From Bacteroidota bacterium (GTDB lineage: Bacteria > Bacteroidota > Ignavibacteria > UBA10030 > UBA6906): a stretch of 64,000 nt of DNA. Both the position numbers and the translations under genes were made by a program. Below the pieces are notes generated by a model. That model was not told the origin of the DNA. It ran no database searches and was given only the letters and a program-made list of their open reading frames with translations. Shown piece by piece: positions 2,106-64,000 of this stretch. The first letter of the stretch is position 1. Each line of letters opens with the position of its first letter. The DNA lies in contig DATJAS010000029.1 of NCBI GenBank assembly GCA_035516035.1, forward strand, positions 14,434-78,433. The letters are read 5' to 3'.

Positions 2106-4646
2106 ATGAATTCGCTCCGCCCCCTTCTTTTCGCATCACTCGCCGTCCTTGCAAGCACTTCATGGGCTCCGGGCCAATCGAACCCCGCGGCGGATATCGC
2201 CGCCTACGAGGCATTCCTCGCATCGCACACGGACCTGAGCACGACGCAACTCCTCGCCATGCACCCGGCGGGGACGTTCTCGGCGCACGCGGCCGTCTCT
2301 CCCGATCAGCTCGCGTACTATCACCTCATAGATTCCTGCTACCAGCTCACGGCATACGAGACCGGGCTCATTGCCGACCACGGGTTCATGGTGACGGACC
2401 GCATCCAGAAGCAGTCTTTTGGCAATGCGTTCATCGAAATCTACAACCGCGATCTTCCCGTCTTTGTGTCCGTCGATGCGATCCTCCACGCGGTCCACTC
2501 GTCTTATGACGTCATACTCAAGTCTGCTGAGGAGCAGTTCCTCATACCGGAAGTCGACTCATTGATCGCGGATCTTCGGGCCGGGATGCCGGCGCTGGCG
2601 GCGGCATACGGTCCTGAACCCGCAATGGGGGCGATGCTTCGCGACATCGATGTCTATCTCACCGTGGCTTCTGCACTTCTCGGGCAGTCCTCGGTTCCGT
2701 TTTTCCCGGAAGACGCGGCGAACGTCGGAAGCATACTCGTCCTGGTCGCAAACCTGGCCCCGGCGCAGGTTCCACTGTTTTCTTCGACTCCTCGAATGAT
2801 AGACTTCAGCCAGTTCACGATACGGGGACACTATACGGAATCGCCTGAGCTCGGGGAATATTTCCAGGCGATGATCTGGCTCGGCAGGACGGAGATATAC
2901 CTGATCCCCCCCGTGGCAGGCGGGCTGGCACCGTCGCAGACCTCCGCCGACATCCAGCGTCAGACGATTGACGGCGCGCTCCTGGTGGAATCGCTCTCGC
3001 GCGCGGGGGCGTTCCCCCTCCTCGGGAAGATCGACGGCGTTATCCGCATGTTCGCAGGGGAGCCGGATAACGTGACGTTCCCGGAAATGCAGACGCTCCT
3101 CGGCTGGACCGGTATCACGGCGGCGGATATGCTCCTCGACACCACGAAACTCGCGGCATTCCAGGACACGCTCATTGCCGAGCCGTTTGCATTCCAGAGA
3201 ATCAACTCCCAGATCCTGGCGAGTCCCGATCCGCTCCACCCGGCGACCATGAAGCCCGCCTCCTCATTGCTCCTGCTCGGGCAGCGGTTCGTGGCGGACT
3301 CCTACGTCACGGGGAACCTGGTGTACGACAGGATCAGCTATCAGGGGACAGCGGTGTGGCGGGCCCTCCCGTCCAGGTTCGACGTCCTGTATGCGCTCGG
3401 CAACGACGCTGCCGCTCAGCTCCTCGTGCCGGAGCTCGATCAGTACCACTACGCGACAAATCTCGCGGCGATGCGCTACCTGATCGACGGCTATGATGCC
3501 GGTTTCTGGACAGGGTCGCTGTACAACGCCTGGCTCGCCATGATCCGGGCGTGTAACCCTCCTCCTGATCGATCGACGCTGCCGCCCTTCATGGCTACCG
3601 CTTCCTGGTGGCAGGAGAAAATGAACACGCAGCTTGCCTCGTGGGCGGAGCTGAGGCACGATAATCTCCTCTACGCAAAGCAGTCGTATACCGTCGTTCC
3701 AATCTGCTCGTATCCCCGGAGCTATGTCGAGCCCATTCCGGCCTTCTTTGACGCTGCGGGGACGCTGGCGAGAGTCGGCAGGGACCGGCTTGCCCCGCTC
3801 TTCGGGACGGCGTGGGTGGGTCAAAGTCTTGCATCGTATTTCGGGACGCTCGCTGGTGTGACCGATACGCTCGGTTCGATCGCCCGGAAGGAGCTTGCCG
3901 GAACTTCGCTGAGCGCGGCTGAGGCCGGTTTCCTCACCCGGATGGTGTACCAGGATTCCTGGATAACATGCGGCGAGCCTGCCTCGGGATGGTATTTCAC
4001 GTTGTACTACCAGGGGAACAAATTTACACAGGCGGACTACATCGCAGCGGATGTCCACACGTGCCCGGCCGATGCCAGCGGGGATCTGGTCGGCTGGGTA
4101 TGGCACGTCGGTACCGGTCCCCTGAGCATGGCCCTCGTCGCGGCAAACACGGCTGACTGCGGATCGTTTGCCTGCATCGGGCCCGTGGCGGGTTACAGGG
4201 AATTCGTGACGAGCGGGTTCCTCCGGCTTACCGATGAACAGTGGAGCGCATCATACGCGCTCCTTGCTGCGAACCGGCCGTCGTTCGTGAATATCTACCT
4301 CGCGGACAGCGCCGGACATTCGCGCGGGGCCGGTGAGTCTCTTCTCACGGGCGTAGCACCCGGTGGAGCCACCGCGATTCCGCAAACGGCGGTCCTCTTT
4401 CAGAACTATCCCAATCCGTTCAACCCCTCAACGACAATCGGGTTCGTCCTGCCGGGGAGGTGCGCGGTGACGCTCGCGGTCTACAACACGCTCGGGCAGT
4501 GCGTCGCGACACTTCACGACGGCCTGCTCGATGCGGGGTATCACTCGGTCCGCTTCGATGCGGCCGGGCTGGCGAGCGGTGTCTATTTCTACCGCCTGCG
4601 CGCCGGCGATTTTGTGCAAACGAAGGGCCTCGCCGTGGTGAAGTAA
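2106..4646 (+). CDS. large secreted protein with T9SS C-terminal sorting domain (Por_Secre_tail); catalytic function unknown
   Basis: Internal ATG at 2106 preceded by GGAGG; signal peptide MNSLRPLLFASLAVLAST. Last ~80 aa (FQNYPNPFNPSTTIGF...GVYFYRLRAGDFVQTKGLAVVK) match the T9SS CTD consensus. Confidence 0.7.
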   Translation: MNSLRPLLFASLAVLASTSWAPGQSNPAADIAAYEAFLASHTDLSTTQLLAMHPAGTFSAHAAVSPDQLAYYHLIDSCYQLTAYETGLIADHGFMVTDRIQKQSFGNAFIEIYNRDLPVFVSVDAILHAVHSSYDVILKSAEEQFLIPEVDSLIADLRAGMPALAAAYGPEPAMGAMLRDIDVYLTVASALLGQSSVPFFPEDAANVGSILVLVANLAPAQVPLFSSTPRMIDFSQFTIRGHYTESPELGEYFQAMIWLGRTEIYLIPPVAGGLAPSQTSADIQRQTIDGALLVESLSRAGAFPLLGKIDGVIRMFAGEPDNVTFPEMQTLLGWTGITAADMLLDTTKLAAFQDTLIAEPFAFQRINSQILASPDPLHPATMKPASSLLLLGQRFVADSYVTGNLVYDRISYQGTAVWRALPSRFDVLYALGNDAAAQLLVPELDQYHYATNLAAMRYLIDGYDAGFWTGSLYNAWLAMIRACNPPPDRSTLPPFMATASWWQEKMNTQLASWAELRHDNLLYAKQSYTVVPICSYPRSYVEPIPAFFDAAGTLARVGRDRLAPLFGTAWVGQSLASYFGTLAGVTDTLGSIARKELAGTSLSAAEAGFLTRMVYQDSWITCGEPASGWYFTLYYQGNKFTQADYIAADVHTCPADASGDLVGWVWHVGTGPLSMALVAANTADCGSFACIGPVAGYREFVTSGFLRLTDEQWSASYALLAANRPSFVNIYLADSAGHSRGAGESLLTGVAPGGATAIPQTAVLFQNYPNPFNPSTTIGFVLPGRCAVTLAVYNTLGQCVATLHDGLLDAGYHSVRFDAAGLASGVYFYRLRAGDFVQTKGLAVVK

Positions 4647-4652
4647 CCATCT

Positions 4653-4700
4653 CTGTCATTGCGACGAAGTCCGCTTCTTGGCGTGGCGATCTCACCGTGA
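4653..4700. repeat. REP/MITE-like element, copy B (degenerate)
   Basis: gtcattgcgacgaag...ggcgatctcacc. Confidence 0.5.
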
Positions 4701-4728
4701 CGCGGTGATTGTCCTCAAAGGCTGCCGC

Positions 4729-7700
4729 CTATTGTCCGGTACAGAGGAGCCGCACGGGGCCGAGAAGCCCCGATGGAAGCAGCGGCGACTTCGCGGTATA
4801 GTGCCGCCACGTCGCGAACGTGTGCCGCGCGGGGGGGCGCAGGGGGTCTGCGCCCCGCAGCCATCGCGGCCACCGGATGAGATTCCCGCCAGGGCCGTAT
4901 GCGGCATCGGGGCGCATCTTTTCATCGCCGATCAGCCTGTTCGGCCAGAGATTGGCGACACGTATCTCCAGCGTGTTGCCCCTGATCCTCAGGGCGTCCG
5001 TAACCTCGACACGCCACGGGGCGCACCAGACCGTGCCCAGGCTGTGCCCGTTCAGCCGCACGCTCGCCATGTTCTTCACGACGCCGAGATCGAGCCACAC
5101 CCTCGCGGTGCCGCCCGCTGCGCGAGCGGCGGGGTGGGGGCGATCGAACTTCGCAACGTACGTCGCGACCCCTGAATAGTACCTGATACCCTTTTCGGGC
5201 CTGGCTGTCCAGTCCTCAAGATGCCTGAATGTCTCGCGGCCCGGCCCGCCAAGCGATGTGTCAAAGGACACCCTCCACGGTCCCCCGATCACTCCGAGCG
5301 TATCGAGAGCAGGGAAATCAGTGCCAGGCCCGGCCAGTGGGGCGTGCCTGAATACGACGAAGTACGACTGGAGCGGCTCGAATCGGATGGGGAGCGTCGT
5401 GAGTCCCGCCGAGACAGAGTAGTCATGCATGTCGCGCGTGACGCCCGTGAGGGGGTCCCAGAGCTCGGGCTGCATCCCCGCGGTGCGGAATACGCAGATC
5501 GCCTGCACGGCCTTCTCCTCCGGGTTTGCGACGAAATAGATCCCGGCCCCGTCAACCTCCCTGTGCGTGTACCGGATGTGGACGTCGGACGAGAAATCAG
5601 GAGGCACGCCGTCCCGGGCCAGCAATCTCGTCACGAACCCGTAGTCGGCGTACTGTTCCTGCTCCATTGCACCTGTCCCGCTCCTGAGCGAATCCGTCTC
5701 TTTCCAGGTCGCGCGGTCCCACACCACCCGGCCCTTCCCGAATGCGTGTGATTTCACACGGACGCCGTCGCAGTCTCCCCAGAGATCCTCCGCGAGCGCG
5801 CGCACCCGTTCGTCGCAGGCCGGGAAATCGGAGAGCCCGGGCGATTTTTCAGGCCGGGGCCCGACGACCGTCGCTCCCTCCCGGACGAGGTCGCGGACCT
5901 TCCCGAGCAGCGCGGGCGACATTGTCTTTCGCTCCGGGAGGACCAGGAGGCGATAGCTCATGCCGCCGGGCAGCGTGAGCCTGCCGTCGCGCACACTCAT
6001 GTCCGCCATGAACACATCGGGAGCGCAGCCGTCAAAGTTGTACCCCTCTCTGTCCGGAGGATCCCCCCGGAGCGCCGAGGCAGGGGGACGGAACACCTCC
6101 GGCGCTCCCTCGGCGACAAGGAAGCAGACGTCGGCCACGGGGAGTCCCTGCATGAGCAGGAACTGGCAGCGGGAAAGGTATGTATGGTAGGCGGGGACCA
6201 TTTCCCACCAGGTTTGCGTCCGCTCCCAGTGGACCCCGAAAGGGCCCATCGTCATGCCGGGCGCGAGGTGAAGCCACGGCTGGTGCTGGTAGCGGTGGAA
6301 GACGAACCGGTTTACCCCCGACGCAAATGCCCAGTCACCGAGCGACTTCATCGAGCCGGGCCAGCCCTGCCATTTCTCCCCGTCGCCCGACGTGAACGCC
6401 TCCGCGTCCACTTCAGGCTTTCCGGTTGTGTGCGCAATCGAAGTCGCCTCGAAGACGCTGTACGACGTGTTAAACCCGTAGAGCCAGAACTCGCACATCG
6501 GGACGTCGGCAATCGATCCGAGGCTCATATCTGCGCACGGTGTCATGTCGTACGGTTCGATGGAAAGCGTGAGCCCGTCTCGACGGCCGAGATCCCTGAG
6601 ATGCCTGGCGTGGTTTTCGAGAAGAAGCTCCCCGGCGGTCGCCCTGAGGTCCCAGAGGAATCTCTCCGACGTTTCACGGTCTCTGACGATCGCCCCCGTG
6701 AGCGCGGGAAGGTACGGGAAGATATCGTAACCTCTTCGCCGGGTGAACTCCTCTCTGAATCGGCCCGTCCAGTTCTGCGAGCCCATCTCCCAGCTATCGA
6801 TGTGCAGCATCGTCCAGCCCCCTCCTCCTGCCCGATTCCGGGGCCCGATCTCCCGGAGGAGAGACCCGATGAACGCATCGTAGTGCGCGTTGAGTGCGGC
6901 GGTGTCGAGCTTGTCGCATTCGAGCCCGAGTCCCGGAACGGGAGCCGGTCGCGAGTTCGCTCCGTTGCTCGTCCGGCCGAACCGCGCGATTGTCCAGCGT
7001 CCTGGCGGTACATGCCACGCCAGCCGTCCCCCCACGGAGAGCCTGGACGTAATGTCAACGACGTTCGTCGGGTCAACTGCCGCACCCGCGGGCAGTTCCG
7101 GATACGCGCTCTCCACTGGAATGAACGGCTTCACCCCCTTCTGTGACGAATAGGGTGCCCGCACGTAGAGGGCTTTCTCGTTAATGTCGGGAATTGTATC
7201 TGCAGCGGATGGTGTCGGATACGCAAGCACGCCGACGTCGCGGTAGTAATCGTTTTTCGCCTGCTCCAGCGGGGCGGGGAGCAGCGAGTCGCCGAAGAAC
7301 GCCCGGCGCCTGGAGGGGCGGGGGAGGAATCCATCGAACATCGCGGGACCGCTCACCCGGGTGGTTGCCCCCACCAGGAGCTGCATTGAGTTCTCAGGAG
7401 TCACCCAGGGGCCGCCGCTCCCCGTCCATCCGGGTCCTGAAAGAAGCGTCACCTGAATCCCGCACCGCTCCGCCTCTCTCACAACGTGTTTGAACAGCTC
7501 CTTCCACGCGGGACTCATAAACTTGACCGGTCCACGCGGGATTCCCACGTTCACCTCCATGATCATGACGCCGCCGATGCCCGCCCGCTTCATCGACTCG
7601 AGATCGGCGGTGATCCCTTTGCGGCTCAGGTTCCCGTCCATCCAGACCCAGTAAACCCAGGGCCGCACCGAATCTGGAGGAGTGCGAAAGCCCGCCTCGA

Positions 7701-8311: not shown

Positions 8312-8350
8312 GTCATTGCGAGGGGCGCCGAAGGCGCCCCGAAGCAATCT
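8312..8350. repeat. REP/MITE-like element, copy C
   Basis: cgtcattgcgag-gggcgccgaaggcgcccc-gaagcaatct. Confidence 0.7.
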
Positions 8351-56595: not shown

Positions 56596-57042
56596 CTACG
56601 CCGGGGTCACCAGCTCCGCGGAAGGCCTGATCAGGTGTGAATGTGTGATGTTCACGACCGGCTTGAGCATCGCGGAGACGGAGCAGTATTTCGTCGTCGA
56701 CAGTTCGATCGCCTGCTCGACATCTGCGGCTTCTATGCCGTCTCCGTAGAAGACGTACTCCACGTGTATATCGGTGAACACCTGCGGGGGCTCCTCCCGC
56801 GCCGTTCCCGTCAGGTGGACTTCATAGCCGTCCAGCCTGATCCGTTTCTTCCTCAGTACCGATATCACGTCCATTGACGTGCATCCCCCCAGCGCAATCA
56901 GGAGCAGCTCCTTCGGGCTCGATGCGGCCGCTTCCGCTCCTGACGGATCCCGCCCGTCCATCATGACCCAGTGATTGGAGTCCGATTTCCCGGCAAGTGT
57001 GTTCCCCCGTACCTGCTTAATGACGGCTTTTTTGACGGCCAT
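56596..57042 (-). CDS. OsmC-family peroxiredoxin-like protein
   Basis: LLIALGGCTSMDV and KYCSVSAML motifs with the two conserved Cys of OsmC/Ohr. Confidence 0.8.
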   Translation of the reverse strand: MAVKKAVIKQVRGNTLAGKSDSNHWVMMDGRDPSGAEAAASSPKELLLIALGGCTSMDVISVLRKKRIRLDGYEVHLTGTAREEPPQVFTDIHVEYVFYGDGIEAADVEQAIELSTTKYCSVSAMLKPVVNITHSHLIRPSAELVTPA

Positions 57043-57167
57043 GGACTGCCTCCGGAGAGCTGTGTGGGTGGTACGTTCATTAGATGCACGGGATTGGGAA
57101 AAGGGTTATGACCCCGGAGAGATTCTTGTGCATCTCACGGGACACACAAACCCACAAACACCAGGAG

Positions 57168-57386
57168 ATGCAAGTGAGAAAGAACATCGGTAATGCCGAC
57201 CGGGTGATCCGCATTCTCGCCGCCGTGGTGGTTGCAGTCCTCCTGCTGACTGGCACGCTCTCGGGCGCTCTCGGACTCGTCCTGGGCATCGCGGGCGCGG
57301 TACTCCTTTTCACCGCTTTCGTCAGCATCTGCCCCCTGTACATGCTCCTTGGGATTTCCACGAAGAAAGCCCCCGGGGCGAAGTAG
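57168..57386 (+). CDS. DUF2892 (YgaP-like) small membrane protein
   Basis: RBS AGGAG. GNADRVIRILAAVV...CPLYMLLGIST pattern typical of DUF2892, which often accompanies rhodanese. Confidence 0.6.
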   Translation: MQVRKNIGNADRVIRILAAVVVAVLLLTGTLSGALGLVLGIAGAVLLFTAFVSICPLYMLLGISTKKAPGAK

Positions 57387-57394
57387 CCTCTCGC

Positions 57395-57652
57395 GTGCAG
57401 GCAGGCCCGGTAATGAGCGATATCAGGGCACCCAGGAATCCCGCGCATTTGAGCGCGCTGATCACGAAGTACTGCGCGGAGGCGGAGGAGAAGCTGAATG
57501 CGGCCCCCGACTACGGAACTGCGCTCCGGCTCAAGGAGACGCTCTGCTCCCGGTTCCAGGAGGAATGCGAGAGCAGCCTCGTGGTGAACGCCACGCGGCA
57601 ATACATCGACGCTGTGCTCAGGAGTCGCTGGGGAGGCGACCACAGAGGATGA
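57395..57652 (+). CDS. hypothetical small protein
   Basis: 85 aa ORF between DUF2892 and thioredoxin-like genes. No motifs. Confidence 0.3.
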   Translation: MQAGPVMSDIRAPRNPAHLSALITKYCAEAEEKLNAAPDYGTALRLKETLCSRFQEECESSLVVNATRQYIDAVLRSRWGGDHRG

Positions 57653-57685
57653 GACAGAAGTGACAAACAACCGTGAGAGGGCGCA

Positions 57686-58045
57686 ATGCTTCAGACGAAC
57701 CTGAAACACATCCTGACGGCGAAAGACCACGCGGAGACGCTGAAGGAGAATGACAATGTGATGGTATGCTGCGGCCGTATGGGGCCCATGTGCATCCCCG
57801 TTTATGCGGTCATGCAGGAGCTTCAATCGGGGTACCCGCACGTCGCATTCAGGGACATGGAATTCGATTCGCCTGACGCGGCAGTCATCAGGAACCTCCC
57901 CCAGTGCAGTGAGTTCCGCGGCCTGCCGTTTACAGTGTACTACCGGAACGGGAACGTCGTCCGCGCCACGAGCAGCATCCAGAACAGGGATGAGGTGAGC
58001 GCGATACTTGATCAGGAATTTGCCGCAAAGAGCGCGGCTGTGTAG
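57686..58045 (+). CDS. thioredoxin-fold protein with atypical CxxxxC-type active-site region
   Basis: VMVCCGRMGPMCIPVYAVMQEL and cis-Pro region GLPFTVYYRNGNVV consistent with a thioredoxin fold. Confidence 0.5.
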   Translation: MLQTNLKHILTAKDHAETLKENDNVMVCCGRMGPMCIPVYAVMQELQSGYPHVAFRDMEFDSPDAAVIRNLPQCSEFRGLPFTVYYRNGNVVRATSSIQNRDEVSAILDQEFAAKSAAV

Positions 58046-58125: not shown

Positions 58126-58533
58126 TCAGTGATCTCCGTGATGCTGGTGCACCCGCCGCGGATCGTGATCGAGCGTGCCTGAGGCGATCGCGGCGATCAC
58201 CTCGTCGATTGTGCGAAGGCCGGTGAGCACCGGCAGGAGATTGGCCCGCCGGAGATGGTCGACCGCTCCCTGCCCCATCCCGCGCACAATCACTGCCTGG
58301 CAGTCGAGGATGGGGGAAACCATCGTCCGGTGCCGGTGTTCGTGGTCGTGCTCCCCCTGGCTGCTCCCCTCCGGGCCGAAACTGTGATGCCCAGCCTTCT
58401 CCCTCCGCTCCCTCCTGACGACCCTCCCTGCAGCAAGGTGGATGACCTCGTAATACCCAGCGCGGCCGAAATGCGAGCTGACCGTAGTGCCGTCGTCTGT
58501 GGCGACGGCGATTTTCGCGTTTTGCAGATCCAT
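58126..58533 (-). CDS. NifB/NifX-family (dinitrogenase FeMo-cofactor-binding domain) protein with His-rich regions
   Basis: KIAVATDDGTTVSSHFGRAGYYEV N-terminus typical of PF02579. His-rich tails (EHDHEHRHR, HQHHGDH). Confidence 0.6.
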   Translation of the reverse strand: MDLQNAKIAVATDDGTTVSSHFGRAGYYEVIHLAAGRVVRRERREKAGHHSFGPEGSSQGEHDHEHRHRTMVSPILDCQAVIVRGMGQGAVDHLRRANLLPVLTGLRTIDEVIAAIASGTLDHDPRRVHQHHGDH

Positions 58534-58537
58534 GGTA

Positions 58538-59731
58538 TTAACAGCCTCCGCTGATTTTTTTTACCGCCGGGGGTGGCGCGCTTGCGCGCGCCCTGTACTC
58601 CCGGATCATCTGCGCGAGCACCGGCTTCGCTTCCGTGCGGAAGCGGAAGGTGTCGGCTTCGTCGCGGGAGCGCGGCGGGTGGGATGGTGTGAACCCGAGG
58701 ATCGTGGAGTCGACCGCGGCGACGCCTCCCTCCAGCACGCGGACGTTATCGTAACCCAGACGGAGCGCGAGGAACGCGGCGTTCCGCGCGGCGCTGCCGT
58801 CCCTGTCGACAAACACCCGCTCTTCGTGCCGCATCCCGAGCAGGCCCGCGTATTGCTTCCCGAACAGTGCCCCGGGGGGGATATTGACGGACCCGGGGAG
58901 TATGGTGGCCGTGGAGTCCAGGGCGGTGCGGACGTCGACAATCACCAGCCGCGGGTCGCGGTCGATGATCCGGAATGCCAGCTCGTCGGCCGTCATCATG
59001 GCGATGGGGTGGCTCCTCTGGAACTCCGCGGAACGGCTCTCGTCGACGAGCAGCGTTTTCCTGTCGGGAATGAACAGCGCCACAATCCCCAGGGCGACGA
59101 GTCCCGCTCCCGCGAGCGCGTGCGCTCGGCGCGGCCACGCACGCGCGGGGCTCTCCGGGTTGACCCGCTTTTCTATCCAGGTCGTTGCCGCGAACGCGCC
59201 GACGGCGACCAGAATGAGCAGCAGTACAAACACCCCTTGCGACATCCCGAGCGAGTCGAACACCCTGATCGGCCCCAGCGCGCCGGATGCGTAGAACCCG
59301 TCGTACAAGGGGAAGAGCTCGCCGAAGACGAATACCCCCAGGATACCGCCGGATACAAAGGCGATGGCGTCTTTCTTGCCGATTGACGCCGCGACGATGC
59401 TGGTCCCCGGGCAGTATCCCCCGAGGATGAATCCCACCCCCATGATCGCCCCGCCGACGATCGCCGGCCCGAGAAACATCGGGTTGACGTAAATGATATC
59501 GGTATCCAGGTAGCCGAAATACCCGAGGAAGATTACTCCGAGCATCGCGGTGACGGCCGCAGTGAAAAACACACGGAGCACCGTAAAATCGTAGCCGTAA
59601 AAGAGCCCGGCCAGCCGCCGGGAAGACGAGAACCCCGCCTGCTCGAGCACGGCGCCGAATGCGATCCCGAGCAGGAATGCGACCACCAGGTTCATCTCGT
59701 TGGTGATGATATCGGGGACAAATGGTCCCAT
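58538..59731 (-). CDS. YeeE/YedE-family sulfur-compound transporter fused to C-terminal rhodanese domain
   Basis: GGYCPG sulphur-transport motif. Rhodanese-like C-terminus (VIVDVRTALD...NVRVLEGG). Confidence 0.75.
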   Translation of the reverse strand: MGPFVPDIITNEMNLVVAFLLGIAFGAVLEQAGFSSSRRLAGLFYGYDFTVLRVFFTAAVTAMLGVIFLGYFGYLDTDIIYVNPMFLGPAIVGGAIMGVGFILGGYCPGTSIVAASIGKKDAIAFVSGGILGVFVFGELFPLYDGFYASGALGPIRVFDSLGMSQGVFVLLLILVAVGAFAATTWIEKRVNPESPARAWPRRAHALAGAGLVALGIVALFIPDRKTLLVDESRSAEFQRSHPIAMMTADELAFRIIDRDPRLVIVDVRTALDSTATILPGSVNIPPGALFGKQYAGLLGMRHEERVFVDRDGSAARNAAFLALRLGYDNVRVLEGGVAAVDSTILGFTPSHPPRSRDEADTFRFRTEAKPVLAQMIREYRARASAPPPAVKKISGGC

Positions 59732-59762
59732 GGAATTGCCTTTGTTAAGTCCTTGTCATTGC

Positions 59763-59807
59763 GAGTGGCGCCGCAGGCGCCACGAAGCAATCAGATCCAG
59801 AGCCTGC
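59763..59807. repeat. REP/MITE-like element, copy I (between the two yeeE-like genes)
   Basis: gtcattgcgag-tggcgccgcaggcgcca-cgaagcaatc. Confidence 0.7.
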
Positions 59808-60303
59808 GGAAGAAATACGCGACCAGGTACCCGCTGCCGAAGATGGCGATCATCGTCAGGAACCCGCCGCTGCTGAGCACCGCCATGCCGCTGAGCGCTG
59901 CGCCGCTGGTGCAACCCCGGGCGAACTGCGCCCCGGCGCCGAAGAGCGCGCCTCCCAGCACCGCCATGACCATGCGGAGCCCGGTCGTAGCGCGTGGACC
60001 TTTCTCCGTCACCCACGTGAGTCTCCGCGAGACCACTCCCGAGAGGAATCCCCCGAAGAGCACGCCGGCGACCTCGAAGACCAGCCACTGCTTGAGGGGG
60101 CTCCCTTCGTGGGCTCCCGCAAACTCCCTGTAAAAGGGGGAAGACTCGAGGTGGTTCGGCGAGGCAGTCTGCACGCCTGCGACGACGACGCTCTTGAGCG
60201 CGCCGCTGGCCCCGAGGCCCCGCCCGGTGAGATAAATCGTCAGCAGGAGGACGAGCCCGAGCAGCACCCCTGCCAGGTACGGATTCATGTATTTCGTGTT
60301 CAT
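59791..60303 (-). CDS. YeeE/YedE-family membrane protein (second half-transporter)
   Basis: FARGCTSGAALSG motif. ATGA overlap with upstream cytochrome b gene. Confidence 0.7.
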   Translation of the reverse strand: MNTKYMNPYLAGVLLGLVLLLTIYLTGRGLGASGALKSVVVAGVQTASPNHLESSPFYREFAGAHEGSPLKQWLVFEVAGVLFGGFLSGVVSRRLTWVTEKGPRATTGLRMVMAVLGGALFGAGAQFARGCTSGAALSGMAVLSSGGFLTMIAIFGSGYLVAYFFRRLWI

Positions 60304-60956
60304 GGCGTAGCTCCTTGTCTGGCCGCGTTGCCGGGTGAGTCCTTCTCTTCGCCGGCCTCCAGTTCCTCCCAGCCTGTGATCATGGCGCGCAGGTTCGAGA
60401 CCGGGGTCCTCCCCGTGGTGATGAGATAGAGGTGGGCGATCAGGAACGCCACGAGGAGGAACGCACCGGCCGTGTGGAGCAGCGCCACGACACGGAGCCC
60501 CTCGATGTTGAGTGCCTCGATGGCGTGGCGGGAGGGGTACCTGTAGAACATATAGAGGAGGCCGGAAAGGACAAGGACCGGGATGACCAGGATCTTGAGC
60601 CCGAGATAGACGAGCCGCTGCAGCGGGTTCAGCTTGCTCAGGCCGGTCTTCCGGGTGGGATGGGGCGCGTTCCGGAATATCCCGAAGAGGTAGTAGGCGA
60701 GTTGTGCACGGAGGTGGCTGCGCGTCGGGATATACTGGCGCCATTCACCCGTCGTCAGGTGCCAGAAGATGGCGAACGCAATGAGCGCAAGGAGCGCTCT
60801 GGCGGCGAGCGAATGGTAGCGCACCGCCTGGTCGAACCCGAAGAACGAGATGGAGCCGTGGATCTCGAACCCCGTGATCATCATGAAGAGTATCAGCAGG
60901 GCCTGCGTCCAGTGCCAGAACCGCTCAAACGCCCGGTAAATGTATTCGCGTTTCAT
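60300..60956 (-). CDS. membrane di-heme cytochrome b subunit (Ni/Fe-hydrogenase / thiosulfate-reductase cytochrome b family)
   Basis: 4 TM helices with conserved His (FERFWHWTQALL, HSLAARALLA, HLYLITTG). ATGA overlap with octaheme cytochrome gene. Confidence 0.65.
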   Translation of the reverse strand: MKREYIYRAFERFWHWTQALLILFMMITGFEIHGSISFFGFDQAVRYHSLAARALLALIAFAIFWHLTTGEWRQYIPTRSHLRAQLAYYLFGIFRNAPHPTRKTGLSKLNPLQRLVYLGLKILVIPVLVLSGLLYMFYRYPSRHAIEALNIEGLRVVALLHTAGAFLLVAFLIAHLYLITTGRTPVSNLRAMITGWEELEAGEEKDSPGNAARQGATP

Positions 60957-62527
60957 GTCCGTGTCCCCCTGCGTCGTGACCGCCGCGAGATGACCCGTGC
61001 CGCGCCGTGCACGACGACTCCCGCACATGTGAGTAGAATGAGCGTCGCGCCAGCAGTGTCGAGCGCGCCGCTGTAGTCCCGTCCGGGCATGTAGAATCCG
61101 GTCAGGCCTGCAAGGCGGGAGTCGTTCCGCGTGTGGCATTCGCCGCACCGCACTGCGTCCTCTTTCGGCGCGACCATGTGGTTGACGGGCCACACCATCT
61201 CGGTTTCGACGAATCCCATGTGACCGCTGTAAGGCTCTCCGGCAAGTGCCATGCCCGCCCTGATCGACGCATCCCAGCTGAAGTCCTGCCAGTAGCCCCC
61301 CTCCCCCTTCCGCGGGGCGAAGAGCTTCGGCTGCACGATCCGGCGGTAGACGGGGTCGTAGGGCTGCAACGCCGTGTGGATCTTGACGGGGATGATCCTG
61401 GCGTCGGGATCTCCGTAGTCGCCGTGCAGTTCGTTGAGTTTGACCGGGACGGCGACGATACTGTCCCCCAGGAGGTAGTGTGAGGCGGTGCCGTTTGACC
61501 AGGCGTACTCGGGCCGGACGTTTTTCGCCCAGACAAACGATCCCTTGATCGACATGTACGTGTCGGTGCCCGACGAATCCTTTTCTTCATACGGCTCCCC
61601 GTTCCGGAGCCTCCCCGCCGTCGACCAATCCCACCGGAGCTTGGTTTTGTTCACGCGCGCGAACAGGGGGATGTGGCAGCTCTGGCAGGCCACCTTGTAC
61701 GTATGTTCGTTCAGGATGTCGTCGTTGTGGGGCATCGCGGAGTGGCAGTCCTCGCACGCCACCCGGTTCCTGTTCATGGAGGAGATGGAATACGTCTTCC
61801 CCTTCATCTGGTGCTTGTGGGCGGTGTGGCAATCCGTGCACTGCATGTCCCCGCCGTCGAGCCCCATATGGACGTCCACCGTCCTGGTGGTGGCAAACAT
61901 CGCGGCGTCGAGGTCGCCGTGCTTGACGTTGTTCCCCCCTCCGCCGAAGAAGTGGCATGTCCCGCACGTCGTGCGCGTGGGCAGGCCGACGCTCTGCGCG
62001 ACCAGAGTGAGGTTGACCGATGAGTCAGGGAGGCCGGCTCCACCGGAGGCCTTGACATAGGTGTTGCTGTTGTCGTGGCAGGCGAGGCAGTCGACGTTCA
62101 GGGAATCCGCGAAGTCGAACGGTTTCTCGTCCGACCACCCGTACCCGATGTGGCACTTGTTGCAGCTCTGGTGGCTCCCCGCCGTGCCGATGCAGAAATT
62201 GTTCAGGATGTTCTTCTTGCCGACGTAGCGGATCCCGCGGCCCGGGATATACTCCTCCCGCTCCCAGTTCCAGTGCGAGGATTTCATCACCTCGCGCGCG
62301 CGGCCGTTATGGCAGGCAATGCATTCGTGCGTGACCTCCTGTGGCTTCGCGAAGCGCTTCCGGAGCTGGGGGAATTTTGCATGGTCGACGGATGCAGTCT
62401 CCCGCGCCCTGTACCTCCGGCGGAGCAAGTCCGTTTCGGAGGGGTCCGTCGCCCGCCGCTCGAGGGCGACGCTTGCCGCAACGAGCGCGGCGGCGATAAG
62501 CACCGTGACGATAATGACTCGTTTCAT
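60953..62527 (-). CDS. periplasmic octaheme c-type cytochrome (tetrathionate-reductase/OTR-like family)
   Basis: Signal peptide. Eight CxxCH motifs (CIACH, CNKCH, CLACH, CGTCH, CTDCH, CEDCH, CQSCH, CGECH). Confidence 0.75.
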   Translation of the reverse strand: MKRVIIVTVLIAAALVAASVALERRATDPSETDLLRRRYRARETASVDHAKFPQLRKRFAKPQEVTHECIACHNGRAREVMKSSHWNWEREEYIPGRGIRYVGKKNILNNFCIGTAGSHQSCNKCHIGYGWSDEKPFDFADSLNVDCLACHDNSNTYVKASGGAGLPDSSVNLTLVAQSVGLPTRTTCGTCHFFGGGGNNVKHGDLDAAMFATTRTVDVHMGLDGGDMQCTDCHTAHKHQMKGKTYSISSMNRNRVACEDCHSAMPHNDDILNEHTYKVACQSCHIPLFARVNKTKLRWDWSTAGRLRNGEPYEEKDSSGTDTYMSIKGSFVWAKNVRPEYAWSNGTASHYLLGDSIVAVPVKLNELHGDYGDPDARIIPVKIHTALQPYDPVYRRIVQPKLFAPRKGEGGYWQDFSWDASIRAGMALAGEPYSGHMGFVETEMVWPVNHMVAPKEDAVRCGECHTRNDSRLAGLTGFYMPGRDYSGALDTAGATLILLTCAGVVVHGAARVISRRSRRRGTRT

Positions 62528-62958
62528 GGGGTGGTTTGCTGTATCAGTTGCTTGATGCCGGCGCAGGACGTCGCCATGCGGTAGACCTCGCAGGAGCGGC
62601 ATTCCCGGCCTTCGCATGGATTGCCGGCGTGACGGTATGTCCAGCAGCCGCCGTCGTGGTCCGTGTACGCGGGACAGTGCCTGCGCTCCTCGTCCGTGCA
62701 GTGGACGAATTGCCAGCAGGGAATGAGCGAATGCATCCTGCGGATCCCGGCGATCCCGACTTTTTCTTCGGTGATCGCTCTGCGAATGCACTCAAGCCTG
62801 TGGACGTCTGCTTCGGTGTACAGTCGCTGTCCCCCTGCCGACTTGTGCGGCAGTATCAATCCCTCCGATTCGTAGAGGCGAAGCGTCTGTACGGAGACCT
62901 CGAGGAGACGGGCAACAGTCCCGATCGAATAGACAGGTTTATCAGTTCTCTGGTCCAT
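62524..62958 (-). CDS. MerR-family transcriptional regulator with C-terminal 8-cysteine domain
   Basis: MerR HTH (YSIGTVARLLEVSVQTLRLYESEGL). C-terminus CWQFVHC...HCP...GGCW...NPCEGRECRSCEV. Stop overlaps start of cytochrome gene. Confidence 0.7.
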   Translation of the reverse strand: MDQRTDKPVYSIGTVARLLEVSVQTLRLYESEGLILPHKSAGGQRLYTEADVHRLECIRRAITEEKVGIAGIRRMHSLIPCWQFVHCTDEERRHCPAYTDHDGGCWTYRHAGNPCEGRECRSCEVYRMATSCAGIKQLIQQTTP

Positions 62959-63235
62959 ACCTACAGTTATAGCTAGCAAGTTAGATGCCAGTGTAATATG
63001 TAGCTCCCAGATGCTGCGTTTTTCAGGGGAATCGGCGGGCTATCGATAAGGAGTGACAAATCCAGGTGTTGTTGCTTGCCACCAAGTGTTGCGGCTTTCA
63101 ACACTCACATGTGCGTTCGGGCTTCGGAATCGCCAATCTTGCCAAATGAGTTCTCGATTCCTGCAACCATGCAAGGTGAGGAGCGAGTCAGCGCGGGAAA
63201 TAATGCCGGCGAGATTGATTGGTGCGGACTTCCAC

Positions 63236-63434: not shown

Positions 63435-64000
63435 TCACGATGTCACCTGGAGGGCGACGTAGAACGTGTTGTCGCCTCTCCTGATGAGCAGCGCCACGCT
63501 GTCATGCTTGCCGATGTGCTCGAACGCCTTGTGGAAATCGCTCACCGACGTGATCCGGGCCTTGTTCACTTCCTTGATCAGGTCGTTCTTCTGAATCCCG
63601 GCTTCGTCAGCGGGACTCTCGGGCTTGACGGCGGCGACAAGCACTCCCTGCTCGTTGTGGAATCCGAGGGCTTTCTCGGCTGAAGCGGTCAACTCCTGGA
63701 CGGAGAGTCCGAACTGTTCGGCCGACGTCTTGTCCTGCGACGGTTCCCCTGAACCGTTTGCCGCGACATTCTTCGGCCGCTCCCCGAGCTTCACCACGAT
63801 GTCGCGCTCCTTGCCGTCGCGCAGGACCATCACGTTGGCATCCGAACCCGGCTCCGCCTCCGCGACGAGGTTCCTGAGCTGGACGCTGTTCTCCACCTCC
63901 GAGCCGTTGAACTTCGTGATGACGTCGCCCCGCTTGATCCCCGCCTTGTCGGCCGGCCCGTCACGGTTGACGCCGCCCACCAGGCACCCTTTCGTGTCCT
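63435..64000 (-). CDS. HtrA/DegP-family serine protease, C-terminal part with two PDZ domains (partial, continues beyond window)
   Basis: PDZ motifs (GVNRDGPADKAGIKRGDVITKFNG; PESPADEAGIQKNDLIKEVN). ORF open to the window edge. Confidence 0.65.
   Translation of the reverse strand, partial: DTKGCLVGGVNRDGPADKAGIKRGDVITKFNGSEVENSVQLRNLVAEAEPGSDANVMVLRDGKERDIVVKLGERPKNVAANGSGEPSQDKTSAEQFGLSVQELTASAEKALGFHNEQGVLVAAVKPESPADEAGIQKNDLIKEVNKARITSVSDFHKAFEHIGKHDSVALLIRRGDNTFYVALQVTS

Follow-up and report, generated by a model that had tools for sequence, protein, structure and literature searches.

A conserved gene set joining an OTR-family octaheme cytochrome c to a cytochrome b and a split YeeE-type transporter with a GGC-tailed rhodanese domain, a candidate sulfur-reducing module of Ignavibacteria and other bacteria

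Octaheme "tetrathionate reductases" (OTR) are widespread cytochromes c, thousands of homologues (more than 5800 proteins) having been returned in the present searches, and a 2026 study on Shewanella ANA-3, published twenty years after the crystal structure, held that their physiological role had never been established and was possibly related to sulfite (PMC12949373). Shewanella-type OTRs are reported to take their electrons via CymA (PMC12949373), otr of an acidobacterial metagenome-assembled genome (MAG) is induced 36-fold by tetrathionate (PMC8528874), and in lucinid symbionts otr adjoins divergent soxY/soxZ (PMC11237559). Among the sulfur transporters of the YeeE type, full-length YeeE imports thiosulfate (PMC7449682), and split YedE1E2 pairs import zero-valent sulfur, for which their single Cys residues are required (PMC10812762). 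Here, we present the analysis of an operon that brings these two protein families together, encoded in a 64,000-nucleotide stretch of DNA (the window) from a Bacteroidota bacterium of the class Ignavibacteria (assembly GCA_035516035.1, contig DATJAS010000029.1), in which the genes for an OTR-family octaheme cytochrome c and a cytochrome b are followed by those for two halves of a YeeE-type transporter, one of them fused to a rhodanese domain that ends in Gly-Gly-Cys (GGC).

As judged from profile matches, all the parts of this operon fall in known families, and the core of four genes is read by us, with a probability of roughly 60%, as a predicted menaquinol-fed periplasmic reductase for S-S-bonded or sulfane sulfur that is furnished with its own carrier-and-channel cassette. 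The core genes and the parts of them on which the argument turns are as follows.

60953..62527, minus strand: OTR-family octaheme cytochrome c, 524 aa (TIGR04315, 576.7 bits; 8 CxxCH motifs)
60300..60956, minus strand: cytochrome b, 218 aa (PF01292, 90.5 bits)
59791..60303, minus strand: C-terminal half of YeeE/YedE, 170 aa (PF04143, 67.7 bits, profile positions 175-308)
58538..59731, minus strand: fusion of the YeeE N-terminal half with rhodanese, 397 aa (PF04143, 47.7 bits; PF00581, 42.4 bits)
58697..59005, minus strand: rhodanese-fold domain, residues 243-345 of the fusion, predicted periplasmic
58541..58549, minus strand: codons of the C-terminal Gly-Gly-Cys of the fusion, a conserved terminal thiol in a SoxY-like motif

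The cassette that accompanies the OTR is also found behind an unrelated enzyme, and this is the strongest argument for the nature of the substrate. An exhaustive HMMER search with the rhodanese domain alone recovered stand-alone homologues of about 205 aa, in which a signal-anchor at the N-terminus precedes a rhodanese that lacks the Cys and the chain closes with GGC. The genomic context of one of them (loci L090/L091) comprises a PsrA-like molybdoenzyme, a 4Fe-4S subunit, an NrfD-like subunit, YeeE-C, YeeE-N and three GGC-tailed rhodaneses; the molybdoenzyme bears the Tat signal RRDFIK and has PhsA as its best NCBIfam match (476 bits). A metagenome scan with the alignment of this stand-alone family returned 80 loci, in which YeeE-C and YeeE-N lie directly upstream of the stand-alone rhodanese wherever the contig permits. 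At least 14 complete loci, together with about 9 partial ones, have PsrA-B-C 5' of this cassette, three have OTR and cytochrome b in that place, and a few hold the cassette with no reductase within reach. Since the cassette is common to two non-homologous, periplasm-facing, quinone-linked enzymes, it can be argued that the OTR clade acts on a sulfur compound.

The GGC tail itself adds to this picture. In tandem GGC-tailed paralogues of one locus the last eight residues are near-identical while identity between the domains is only about 30% (tails such as KAVQGGCS/KSVQGGCS/KSVQGGCS, or EVSGGC three times), and because the tails of a locus match though the domains diverge, the sequences suggest coevolution of the tail with a shared partner. 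Tandem GGC rhodaneses occur in 23 loci overall, for example at L091 6001-8990, L141 7386-10357 and L139 5608-9201, and some of the paralogues retain the canonical rhodanese Cys and bear lipoprotein signal peptides.

For the OTR-linked form, a scan restricted to one genome per species gave 526 loci with OTR relatives, the best 80 of which (58-67% identity) were examined with 10-kb flanks by tblastn with the window proteins. The order OTR, cytochrome b, YeeE C-half, YeeE N-half/rhodanese was kept in all 74 loci not cut by a contig end, in MAGs labelled Ignavibacteriota, Bacteroidota, Kryptoniota, Acidobacteriota (Vicinamibacteria, Holophagales and Thermoanaerobaculia) and KSB1, and thus in at least three phyla. 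Little DNA separates the genes in the relatives, the median junction gaps being 3, 1, 9 and 15 nt and 4-nt overlaps occurring in 18/56, 18/76 and 28/71 cases, and these junctions together with the 74 informative loci rule out a chance adjacency of genes that form no operon. An earlier note on this DNA, made from the sequence alone, had described six minus-strand genes as one tightly coupled transcription unit and had proposed a search for neighbourhood conservation; all six genes are present with family assignments backed by Pfam and NCBIfam, and the keeping of gene order and spacing across phyla bears out the coupling for the core. The count of overlaps had to be lowered, as base-by-base reading of the junctions gives three ATGA start/stop overlaps (62527-62524, 60956-60953 and 60303-60300) where four overlaps of 4 nt had been noted.

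The association with cytochrome b and YeeE sets this group apart from the OTRs described so far. The Shewanella and Marinobacter proteins measure 455-470 aa, have no C-terminal helix and are arranged as monoheme cytochrome c-DUF3373-OTR, the Malonomonas OTR stands alone, and neither a cytochrome b nor a YeeE gene was found beside any of the three. Because the Shewanella-type and Malonomonas OTRs have neither partner, the window OTR is assigned, on sequence and gene order, to a distinct membrane-anchored clade with its own conserved partners.

Some of the OTR clusters hold further genes of interest. In the Vicinamibacteria contig DATKME010000071 (locus L085, 1-9700) the genes upstream of OTR encode TusA, a DsrE-like protein, an ArsR-type helix-turn-helix-rhodanese fusion, metallo-beta-lactamase-fold proteins, FlpD/HdrA-like proteins and a DUF134-DUF5320-NifX-CbiA/Fer4-CbiA/Fer4-NifX cluster, with OsmC and DUF134 downstream, and this region is a dense sulfur-trafficking neighbourhood. 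Outer-membrane beta-barrel-like open reading frames (ORFs) lie inside OTR clusters and DUF3373 adjoins the Shewanella and Marinobacter OTRs (L139 4307-5572, L141 10351-11697, and L087/L088 at about 4250-5956); these genes hint that the substrate may have a route of its own through the outer membrane.

The OTR-like identity of the cytochrome c, proposed earlier, was upheld by the hidden Markov model classification among OTR, ONR, HAO and MccA, which gave the OTR family. The match to TIGR04315 stands well above the cutoff of 375 bits and covers the whole profile (1-440), and no other multiheme family of NCBIfam was above its cutoff, the NrfB-type models showing trace similarity. HAO, ONR, NrfA and MccA were therefore rejected as classes for the octaheme protein, as TIGR04315 alone passes its cutoff and the Cys pair of MccA is missing. 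Residues 55-468 align to the Shewanella OTR structure 1SP3 (E 7e-129); the invariant Lys104 of a GKKN motif falls on Lys56 of 1SP3, which we take to be the distal ligand of catalytic heme 2, remote from its CxxCH, and the free Cys112 falls on Cys64. Among 77 homologues 17 Cys are conserved, namely the 16 of the CxxCH heme motifs, which are invariant, and Cys112. The protein begins with a signal or anchor sequence and ends in a transmembrane (TM) helix with a basic cytoplasmic tail (+6). It was also observed that His507, inside this C-terminal TM helix (residues ~493-524, window 60953-61050), is invariant in 77/77 homologues.

The cytochrome b exceeds the Pfam gathering threshold of 30.1 bits threefold in score, and its His15, His66, His161 and His175, with a 14-residue spacing on TM4, are conserved at 98-100% in 66 homologues. 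The di-heme b anchor named in the earlier note is in keeping with this four-His pattern, and the protein is predicted to be a di-heme quinol-interacting subunit that partners the C-terminal TM helix of OTR. The best NCBIfam model is PhsC (NF011582 equivalog), at 113 bits under a cutoff of 204. Beyond the four expected heme ligands, His33, His48 and His99 are invariant as well. In one 69%-identical relative (locus L084, 11569-12253) the cytochrome b is called as two ORFs of 152 and 92 aa, which may be due to a frameshift or an assembly error.

The two YeeE permeases reported earlier, one with a rhodanese fusion, were recovered with PF04143 twice and PF00581 once, all above the Pfam cutoffs, and it can be seen from the profile positions that they constitute the C-terminal and the N-terminal half of a single PF04143 fold. 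In the C-half, with four TM helices and both termini inside, alignment to residues 229-330 of 6LEO/8J4C equates Cys131 with Cys293 of StYeeE (conserved in 75/75) and the invariant Glu77 with Glu241. The N-half likewise contributes four TM helices, and its Cys107, in a GG[YF]CPG loop, corresponds by motif and profile position to the Cys91 loop of StYeeE. The NCBIfam TsuA models scored 35.5 against a cutoff of 400 and 20 against 645 for the YeeE halves, and a TusA-like YeeD/TsuB gene was not found by Pfam in the window locus.

Beyond the YeeE N-half, the fusion protein has a fifth TM helix (TM5) that resembles H7 and an additional TM6; the Cys-less rhodanese comes next, and after it a long helix leads to the flexible tail with its terminal GGC. 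The length of the fusion is equal in about 70 loci, and precomputed Pfam annotation confirmed a Sulf_transp plus Rhodanese fusion of 396-397 aa on Ignavibacteriota, Vicinamibacteria and Kryptonia contigs. Although the PF00581 score is nearly twice the cutoff of 22.2 bits, a catalytic-loop Cys occurs in 0/70 fusion homologues; the window protein has Asp at this position (residue 309), and 69 of the 70 homologues divide into Gly 40, Ala 23, Asp 5 and Ser 1. The tail nearly always reads K-K-I-x-G-G-C, with Cys397 present in 67/70 (QGGC in 45, AGGC in 11), and the GGC terminus is invariant in 14 diverse homologues of the domain at 23-43% identity. The AlphaFold2 model gives the rhodanese a predicted local distance difference test score of about 90, helices at 165-190, 201-220 and 356-383, and disorder in the last 14 residues, and the Foldseek matches of the domain are single-domain rhodaneses (TM-score 0.65-0.81). 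The GGC-tailed domain has no model of its own in Pfam or NCBIfam.

The StYeeE chain begins outside and ends inside the cell, helix H7 flipping the topology (PMC7449682). When this arrangement is mapped onto the fusion, the N-half is predicted to start outside and to cross four times, TM5 to run from outside to inside, a strongly basic loop to lie inside, and TM6 to lead back out, which would place the rhodanese-GGC part in the periplasm. Over 70 sequences the predicted cytoplasmic loops hold 7.4 Lys plus Arg and the predicted periplasmic loops 1.35. An extracytoplasmic location is further supported by the export signals of the relatives, that is, the signal-anchor of the stand-alone homologues and the lipoprotein signal peptides (lipoboxes) of larger rhodanese-GGC paralogues with the same tail. 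Lacking a catalytic Cys, predicted to be periplasmic and bearing a GGC arm, the domain is therefore unlikely to be an ordinary cytoplasmic sulfurtransferase. A cytoplasmic rhodanese in replacement of YeeD was considered and judged less likely in view of the StYeeE topology, the Lys/Arg bias and the homologues with signal-anchor or lipobox.

From these elements a working scheme can be composed. Electrons would pass from menaquinol through the di-heme cytochrome b to OTR, which would dock on the cytochrome b by its own C-terminal TM helix and expose its catalytic, Lys-ligated heme 2 to the periplasm. Beside it would lie the split YeeE-type channel, in which both Cys residues essential in full-length YeeE are kept, and the two extra TM helices of the N-half would put the Cys-less rhodanese and its flexible GGC arm into the periplasm. 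The substrate, presumably tetrathionate, polysulfide or thiosulfate with S-S-bonded or sulfane sulfur, would probably be bound to the GGC arm in the form of a persulfide, a polysulfide or an S-thiosulfonate, OTR would cleave the bound sulfur reductively with menaquinol-derived electrons, and the YeeE pair would serve for the passage of thiosulfate or zero-valent sulfur, as product or substrate, through the membrane. A MerR-type regulator with a putative eight-Cys sensor would head the unit where the locus is labelled Bacteroidota or Ignavibacteriota. A quinol-linked module for a sulfur substrate, as the earlier note had suggested, is accordingly retained as the preferred reading in light of the attachment of the cassette to Psr/Phs-like reductases.

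Several points weigh against this reading. Purified Shewanella OTR works better on nitrite and hydroxylamine than on tetrathionate in vitro, and otr mutants of Shewanella ANA-3 had no tetrathionate phenotype in the 2026 study (PMC12949373). The periplasmic site of the rhodanese-GGC domain is itself a prediction, a free periplasmic thiol needs a reducing route and none was identified, and the gene association was established within the best 80 of the 526 OTR loci. The quantitative PCR primers for otr of Ca. Sulfomarinibacter had no match in the fetched loci, so that the tetrathionate induction is not tied to this clade.

A bolder extension, which we put forward tentatively and hold to be considerably less probable than the core reading, is that the GGC-armed Cys-less rhodaneses, tethered to a split YeeE by fusion, TM helix or lipid, form an unrecognised periplasmic sulfur-carrier system that presents covalently bound sulfur (persulfide, polysulfide or S-thiosulfonate) to two unrelated quinol-dependent reductases, OTR-cytochrome b or Psr/Phs. 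If true, the natural substrate of the clade OTR would be a protein-bound sulfur adduct and not a free anion. If such an arrangement were valid for the soluble OTRs too, it could explain their poor use of tetrathionate and the missing otr phenotype, which the data from the clade do not show.

Among the alternatives, the one that survives best, although it appears unlikely, is a respiration of free tetrathionate, in which OTR-cytochrome b would produce thiosulfate, the YeeE pair would import it for assimilation and the rhodanese-GGC would act as a periplasmic anion-binding lid. The name of the OTR family and its in vitro activity on tetrathionate (PMC12949373) agree with it, as do the induction of otr by tetrathionate in sediment microcosms (PMC8528874) and the role of YeeE as a thiosulfate importer whose essential Cys are kept here. 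It leaves unexplained the near-invariant terminal Cys, the near-identical tandem tails and the use of the same cassette by Psr/Phs-like enzymes; moreover, the split YedE pairs moved zero-valent sulfur and not thiosulfate in the single experimental study (PMC10812762), and the YeeD/TsuB partner of thiosulfate import is not found at the locus.

Less probable still is a system for sulfite, which the split YeeE would export from the cytoplasm, as proposed for PmpAB/BigR-operon homologues, or import, and which OTR would reduce to sulfide in the periplasm in the manner of MccA/SirA. The latter enzymes are marked by a heme motif of the CX15CH type, by a further pair of Cys that serves a Cu site and by their partners MccB/C/D. 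In the window OTR neither the extra Cys pair nor CX15CH was found, a MccA-type Cu site being missing because one non-heme Cys only is conserved, and NrfC/NrfD/PPIase neighbours (the MccB/C/D-like partners) were not found in the window. The heme cores of OTR and MccA nevertheless superimpose, and a slightly higher sulfite level in a Shewanella ANA-3 ttr/otr double mutant led its authors to suggest a sulfite reductase role (PMC12949373); PmpAB are predicted to be sulfur-anion transporters (PMC11582611). It is also to be considered that the other partner of the cassette is a Psr/Phs-type enzyme that cleaves S-S bonds, and that free sulfite would not require a GGC carrier arm.

We consider it very improbable that the protein is a nitrite or hydroxylamine reductase or detoxifier whose linkage to YeeE and rhodanese is incidental or regulatory, even though Shewanella OTR and its relatives act best on nitrite and hydroxylamine in vitro and the OTR structure is related to NrfA/HAO (PMC12949373). 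The earlier note had named a clear HAO/ONR classification with nitrogen-cycle neighbours in related genomes as an observation that would speak against its own reading; the protein belongs to TIGR04315 with its trace similarity to NrfB-type models, and the detailed annotation of three related neighbourhoods showed no nitrogen-cycle genes. The linkage in all 74 informative loci and the company of sulfur reductases that the cassette keeps elsewhere argue in the same direction.

The weakest candidate, a selenium or tellurium oxyanion system with YedE-type selenium transport or an OTR run in reverse as thiosulfate:quinone oxidoreductase, is hardly credible, for although the YeeE halves have a weak similarity to selenium-type YedE (E 1e-4 to 3e-3) and the Psr/Phs family presumably takes in enzymes for other chalcogen or oxyanion substrates, all selenium-family scores are far under the NCBIfam cutoffs, a selD/selA context was not seen in the window or the three annotated relatives, and thiosulfate oxidation at +198 mV (a value cited in PMC8528874) could not, to our understanding, reduce menaquinone, the quinone type assumed here.

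The remaining features of the locus lie around the core and are as follows.

62524..62958, minus strand: MerR-family regulator, 144 aa (PF13411, 63 bits; PF00376, 48 bits)
62976..62990, minus strand: conserved element of 15 nt, TGGCATCTAACTTGC, some 20-30 nt ahead of the merR ATG
59765..59783, no strand: REP-like GC-rich palindrome GTGGCGCC-N3-GGCGCCAC in the spacer between the two YeeE genes
58126..58533, minus strand: PF02579 (NifX/NifB-C/ORP-like) protein, 135 aa, with a His-rich insert and tail (PF02579, 51 bits)
57686-58045, plus strand: 119-aa Cys-containing ORF, no family match
57413-57652, plus strand: 79-aa ORF whose homologues recur near the operon
57108-57386, plus strand: DUF2892/YgaP-like TM protein (Pfam/NCBIfam)
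56596-57042, minus strand: OsmC (Pfam/NCBIfam)

The regulator carries a C-terminal domain of 65 residues with eight Cys (C81, C87, C95, C105, C115, C120, C123 and C132) and two CW motifs, six of the Cys being conserved in 59/59 homologues and two in 58/59. This domain had no match in Pfam (E up to 10), NCBIfam or PDB, where the winged helix-turn-helix part alone matches, and the named equivalogs MerR, CueR, ZntR, SoxR and HspR remained far under their cutoffs, the best being HspR with 64.9 against 105; its probable function is the sensing of metal, Fe-S or sulfur. The gene lies upstream of OTR in the loci with a Bacteroidota, Ignavibacteriota or similar label, in one "Synechococcus" MAG and in one unclassified genome, and it is missing in every Acidobacteriota and KSB1 locus among the 80 examined. 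The dedicated regulator of the earlier note does head the operon, but its confinement to Bacteroidota/Ignavibacteriota-labelled loci keeps it out of the core.

Just upstream of merR (about 30 nt in L004-L080), the consensus YGGYAY-N5-TTGY was met in 49/60 loci with MerR and 0/21 without, against a background of 0.038 per kb. Judging from its sequence, the element could be either a sigma-54 -24/-12 promoter or a MerR operator; it resembles the former, but it is partly palindromic (TGGCA-N7-TGCCA-like), as are many of the copies, and about half of them have TTGT in place of the canonical TTGC. No sigma-54 enhancer-binding protein was found near merR in the window or in the related locus L001. 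A TATAA-like box lies 3' of the element, about 10 nt ahead of the merR ATG. Further upstream of merR, genes were observed for a protease of the DegP/HtrA type and for a response regulator of the OmpR type that is accompanied by a HAMP histidine kinase (window 63435-63980; L001 5221-9093).

The spacer 3' of the third overlap is 59 nt long and holds the perfect palindrome GTGGCGCC-GCA-GGCGCCAC; in the relatives the two YeeE genes are separated by 3-21 nt, and the palindrome-bearing spacer is lineage-specific. The palindrome belongs to a family, GYGGCGCC-N3-GGCGCCRC, of which the window contains seven copies when two mismatches are allowed, against 0.11 expected (window positions 8322, 8840, 43817, 43903, 47531, 59765 and 63244), and because it is one of a repeated family the "REP" label that it had received is fair. 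The copies at 43903 and 47531 are identical, and besides the one at 59765 in the operon spacer another lies upstream of merR.

The fusion gene is followed after a 4-nt gap (TAAtaccATG) by the gene for the PF02579 protein. The NifX-like, His-rich protein of the earlier note was thus confirmed as to family and position, and its membership in the conserved operon was not: the gene is missing at the corresponding position in the relatives, homologues occurring elsewhere within 10 kb in some loci, and for want of synteny it was rejected as a core part. The NifX equivalog scored 24.8 against a cutoff of 112 and no nif genes were found near it in the window. On these comparisons the gene is taken as a lineage-specific accessory, a local add-on. 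As regards the group at 56596-58045, DUF2892 and OsmC were substantiated, while the 119-aa ORF, which had been called thioredoxin-like, has no support from hidden Markov models; neither it nor the 79-aa ORF gave anything usable in Pfam at E up to 10. About a dozen relatives, among them the loci L007, L012, L017, L027, L033, L035, L038, L039, L042 and L058, also have homologues of DUF2892, the 79-aa ORF and OsmC at a distance of a few kb from the operon, in most cases directly upstream of merR.

Overall, the clade provides a strong and testable genomic clue to the substrate of OTR, namely sulfane or S-S-bonded sulfur that is possibly protein-bound, and it marks abundant Ignavibacteriota and Acidobacteriota of soil, peat and sediment as likely users of sulfur-cycle intermediates. 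It also flags the GGC-tailed periplasmic rhodaneses as an uncurated family. As to novelty, the earlier note had called the combination undescribed, and this holds in part. The literature searched yielded no description of the link between OTR and a split YeeE, of a GGC-armed rhodanese that lacks the Cys, or of a cassette held in common with Psr/Phs enzymes; the pair of OTR and cytochrome b561 had already been noted in the Ignavibacteriae MAG Ch128a, where a quinone-linked membrane reductase was inferred too (PMC7509429). The YeeE pair, the rhodanese-GGC fusion and MerR are not mentioned in that account.

In comparison with the OTR of Shewanella oneidensis (1SP3), the window protein keeps the eight CxxCH motifs, the Lys of heme 2, the free Cys and the catalytic core, and differs from it by about 55 additional residues, the C-terminal TM helix, an overlapping cytochrome b gene and the YeeE/rhodanese-GGC cassette. 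The cytochrome b resembles the PF01292 anchors FdnI and HyaC in its four His in a TM1/TM2/TM4 pattern and in a partner held by a C-terminal TM helix; we take the pair of OTR and cytochrome b to correspond to the C-terminal helix of the FdnH/HyaA type with FdnI/HyaC. The difference from formate dehydrogenase-N and [NiFe]-hydrogenase lies in the periplasmic subunit, for which a multiheme cytochrome c is used here in place of an Fe-S protein.

The transporter is split into a C-half and an N-half like PmpA/PmpB and keeps the equivalents of Cys91 and Cys293. It departs from YeeE/TsuA-YeeD/TsuB in being split, in having no TusA-like partner and in the H7-like TM, the extra TM and the periplasmic domain that are predicted to be added to its N-half, and from YedE1E2/PmpAB in its linkage to respiratory reductases in place of cysteine synthesis or pdo/BigR operons.

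In SoxY a GGCGG motif forms the C-terminal swinging arm, and the fusion shares with it a Gly-Gly-Cys at the flexible C-terminus of a (predicted) periplasmic protein, from which it is distinguished by its rhodanese fold and by the lack of a SoxZ gene at the locus. Sud of Wolinella is a periplasmic rhodanese that feeds polysulfide reductase. The present domain likewise has a rhodanese fold and a predicted periplasmic location, and in some loci its gene accompanies a reductase of the Psr type; it differs in that the loop Cys is missing in the YeeE-proximal copy, the thiol sits at the C-terminus and the domain is tethered or fused to a channel. A further counterpart is given by the PsrABC/PhsABC loci (L090/L091 and about 23 metagenome loci), in which a Tat-exported molybdopterin enzyme with NrfC/NrfD-type partners takes the place of OTR and cytochrome b, and the identical cassette follows in the same order downstream of the reductase and its membrane subunit.

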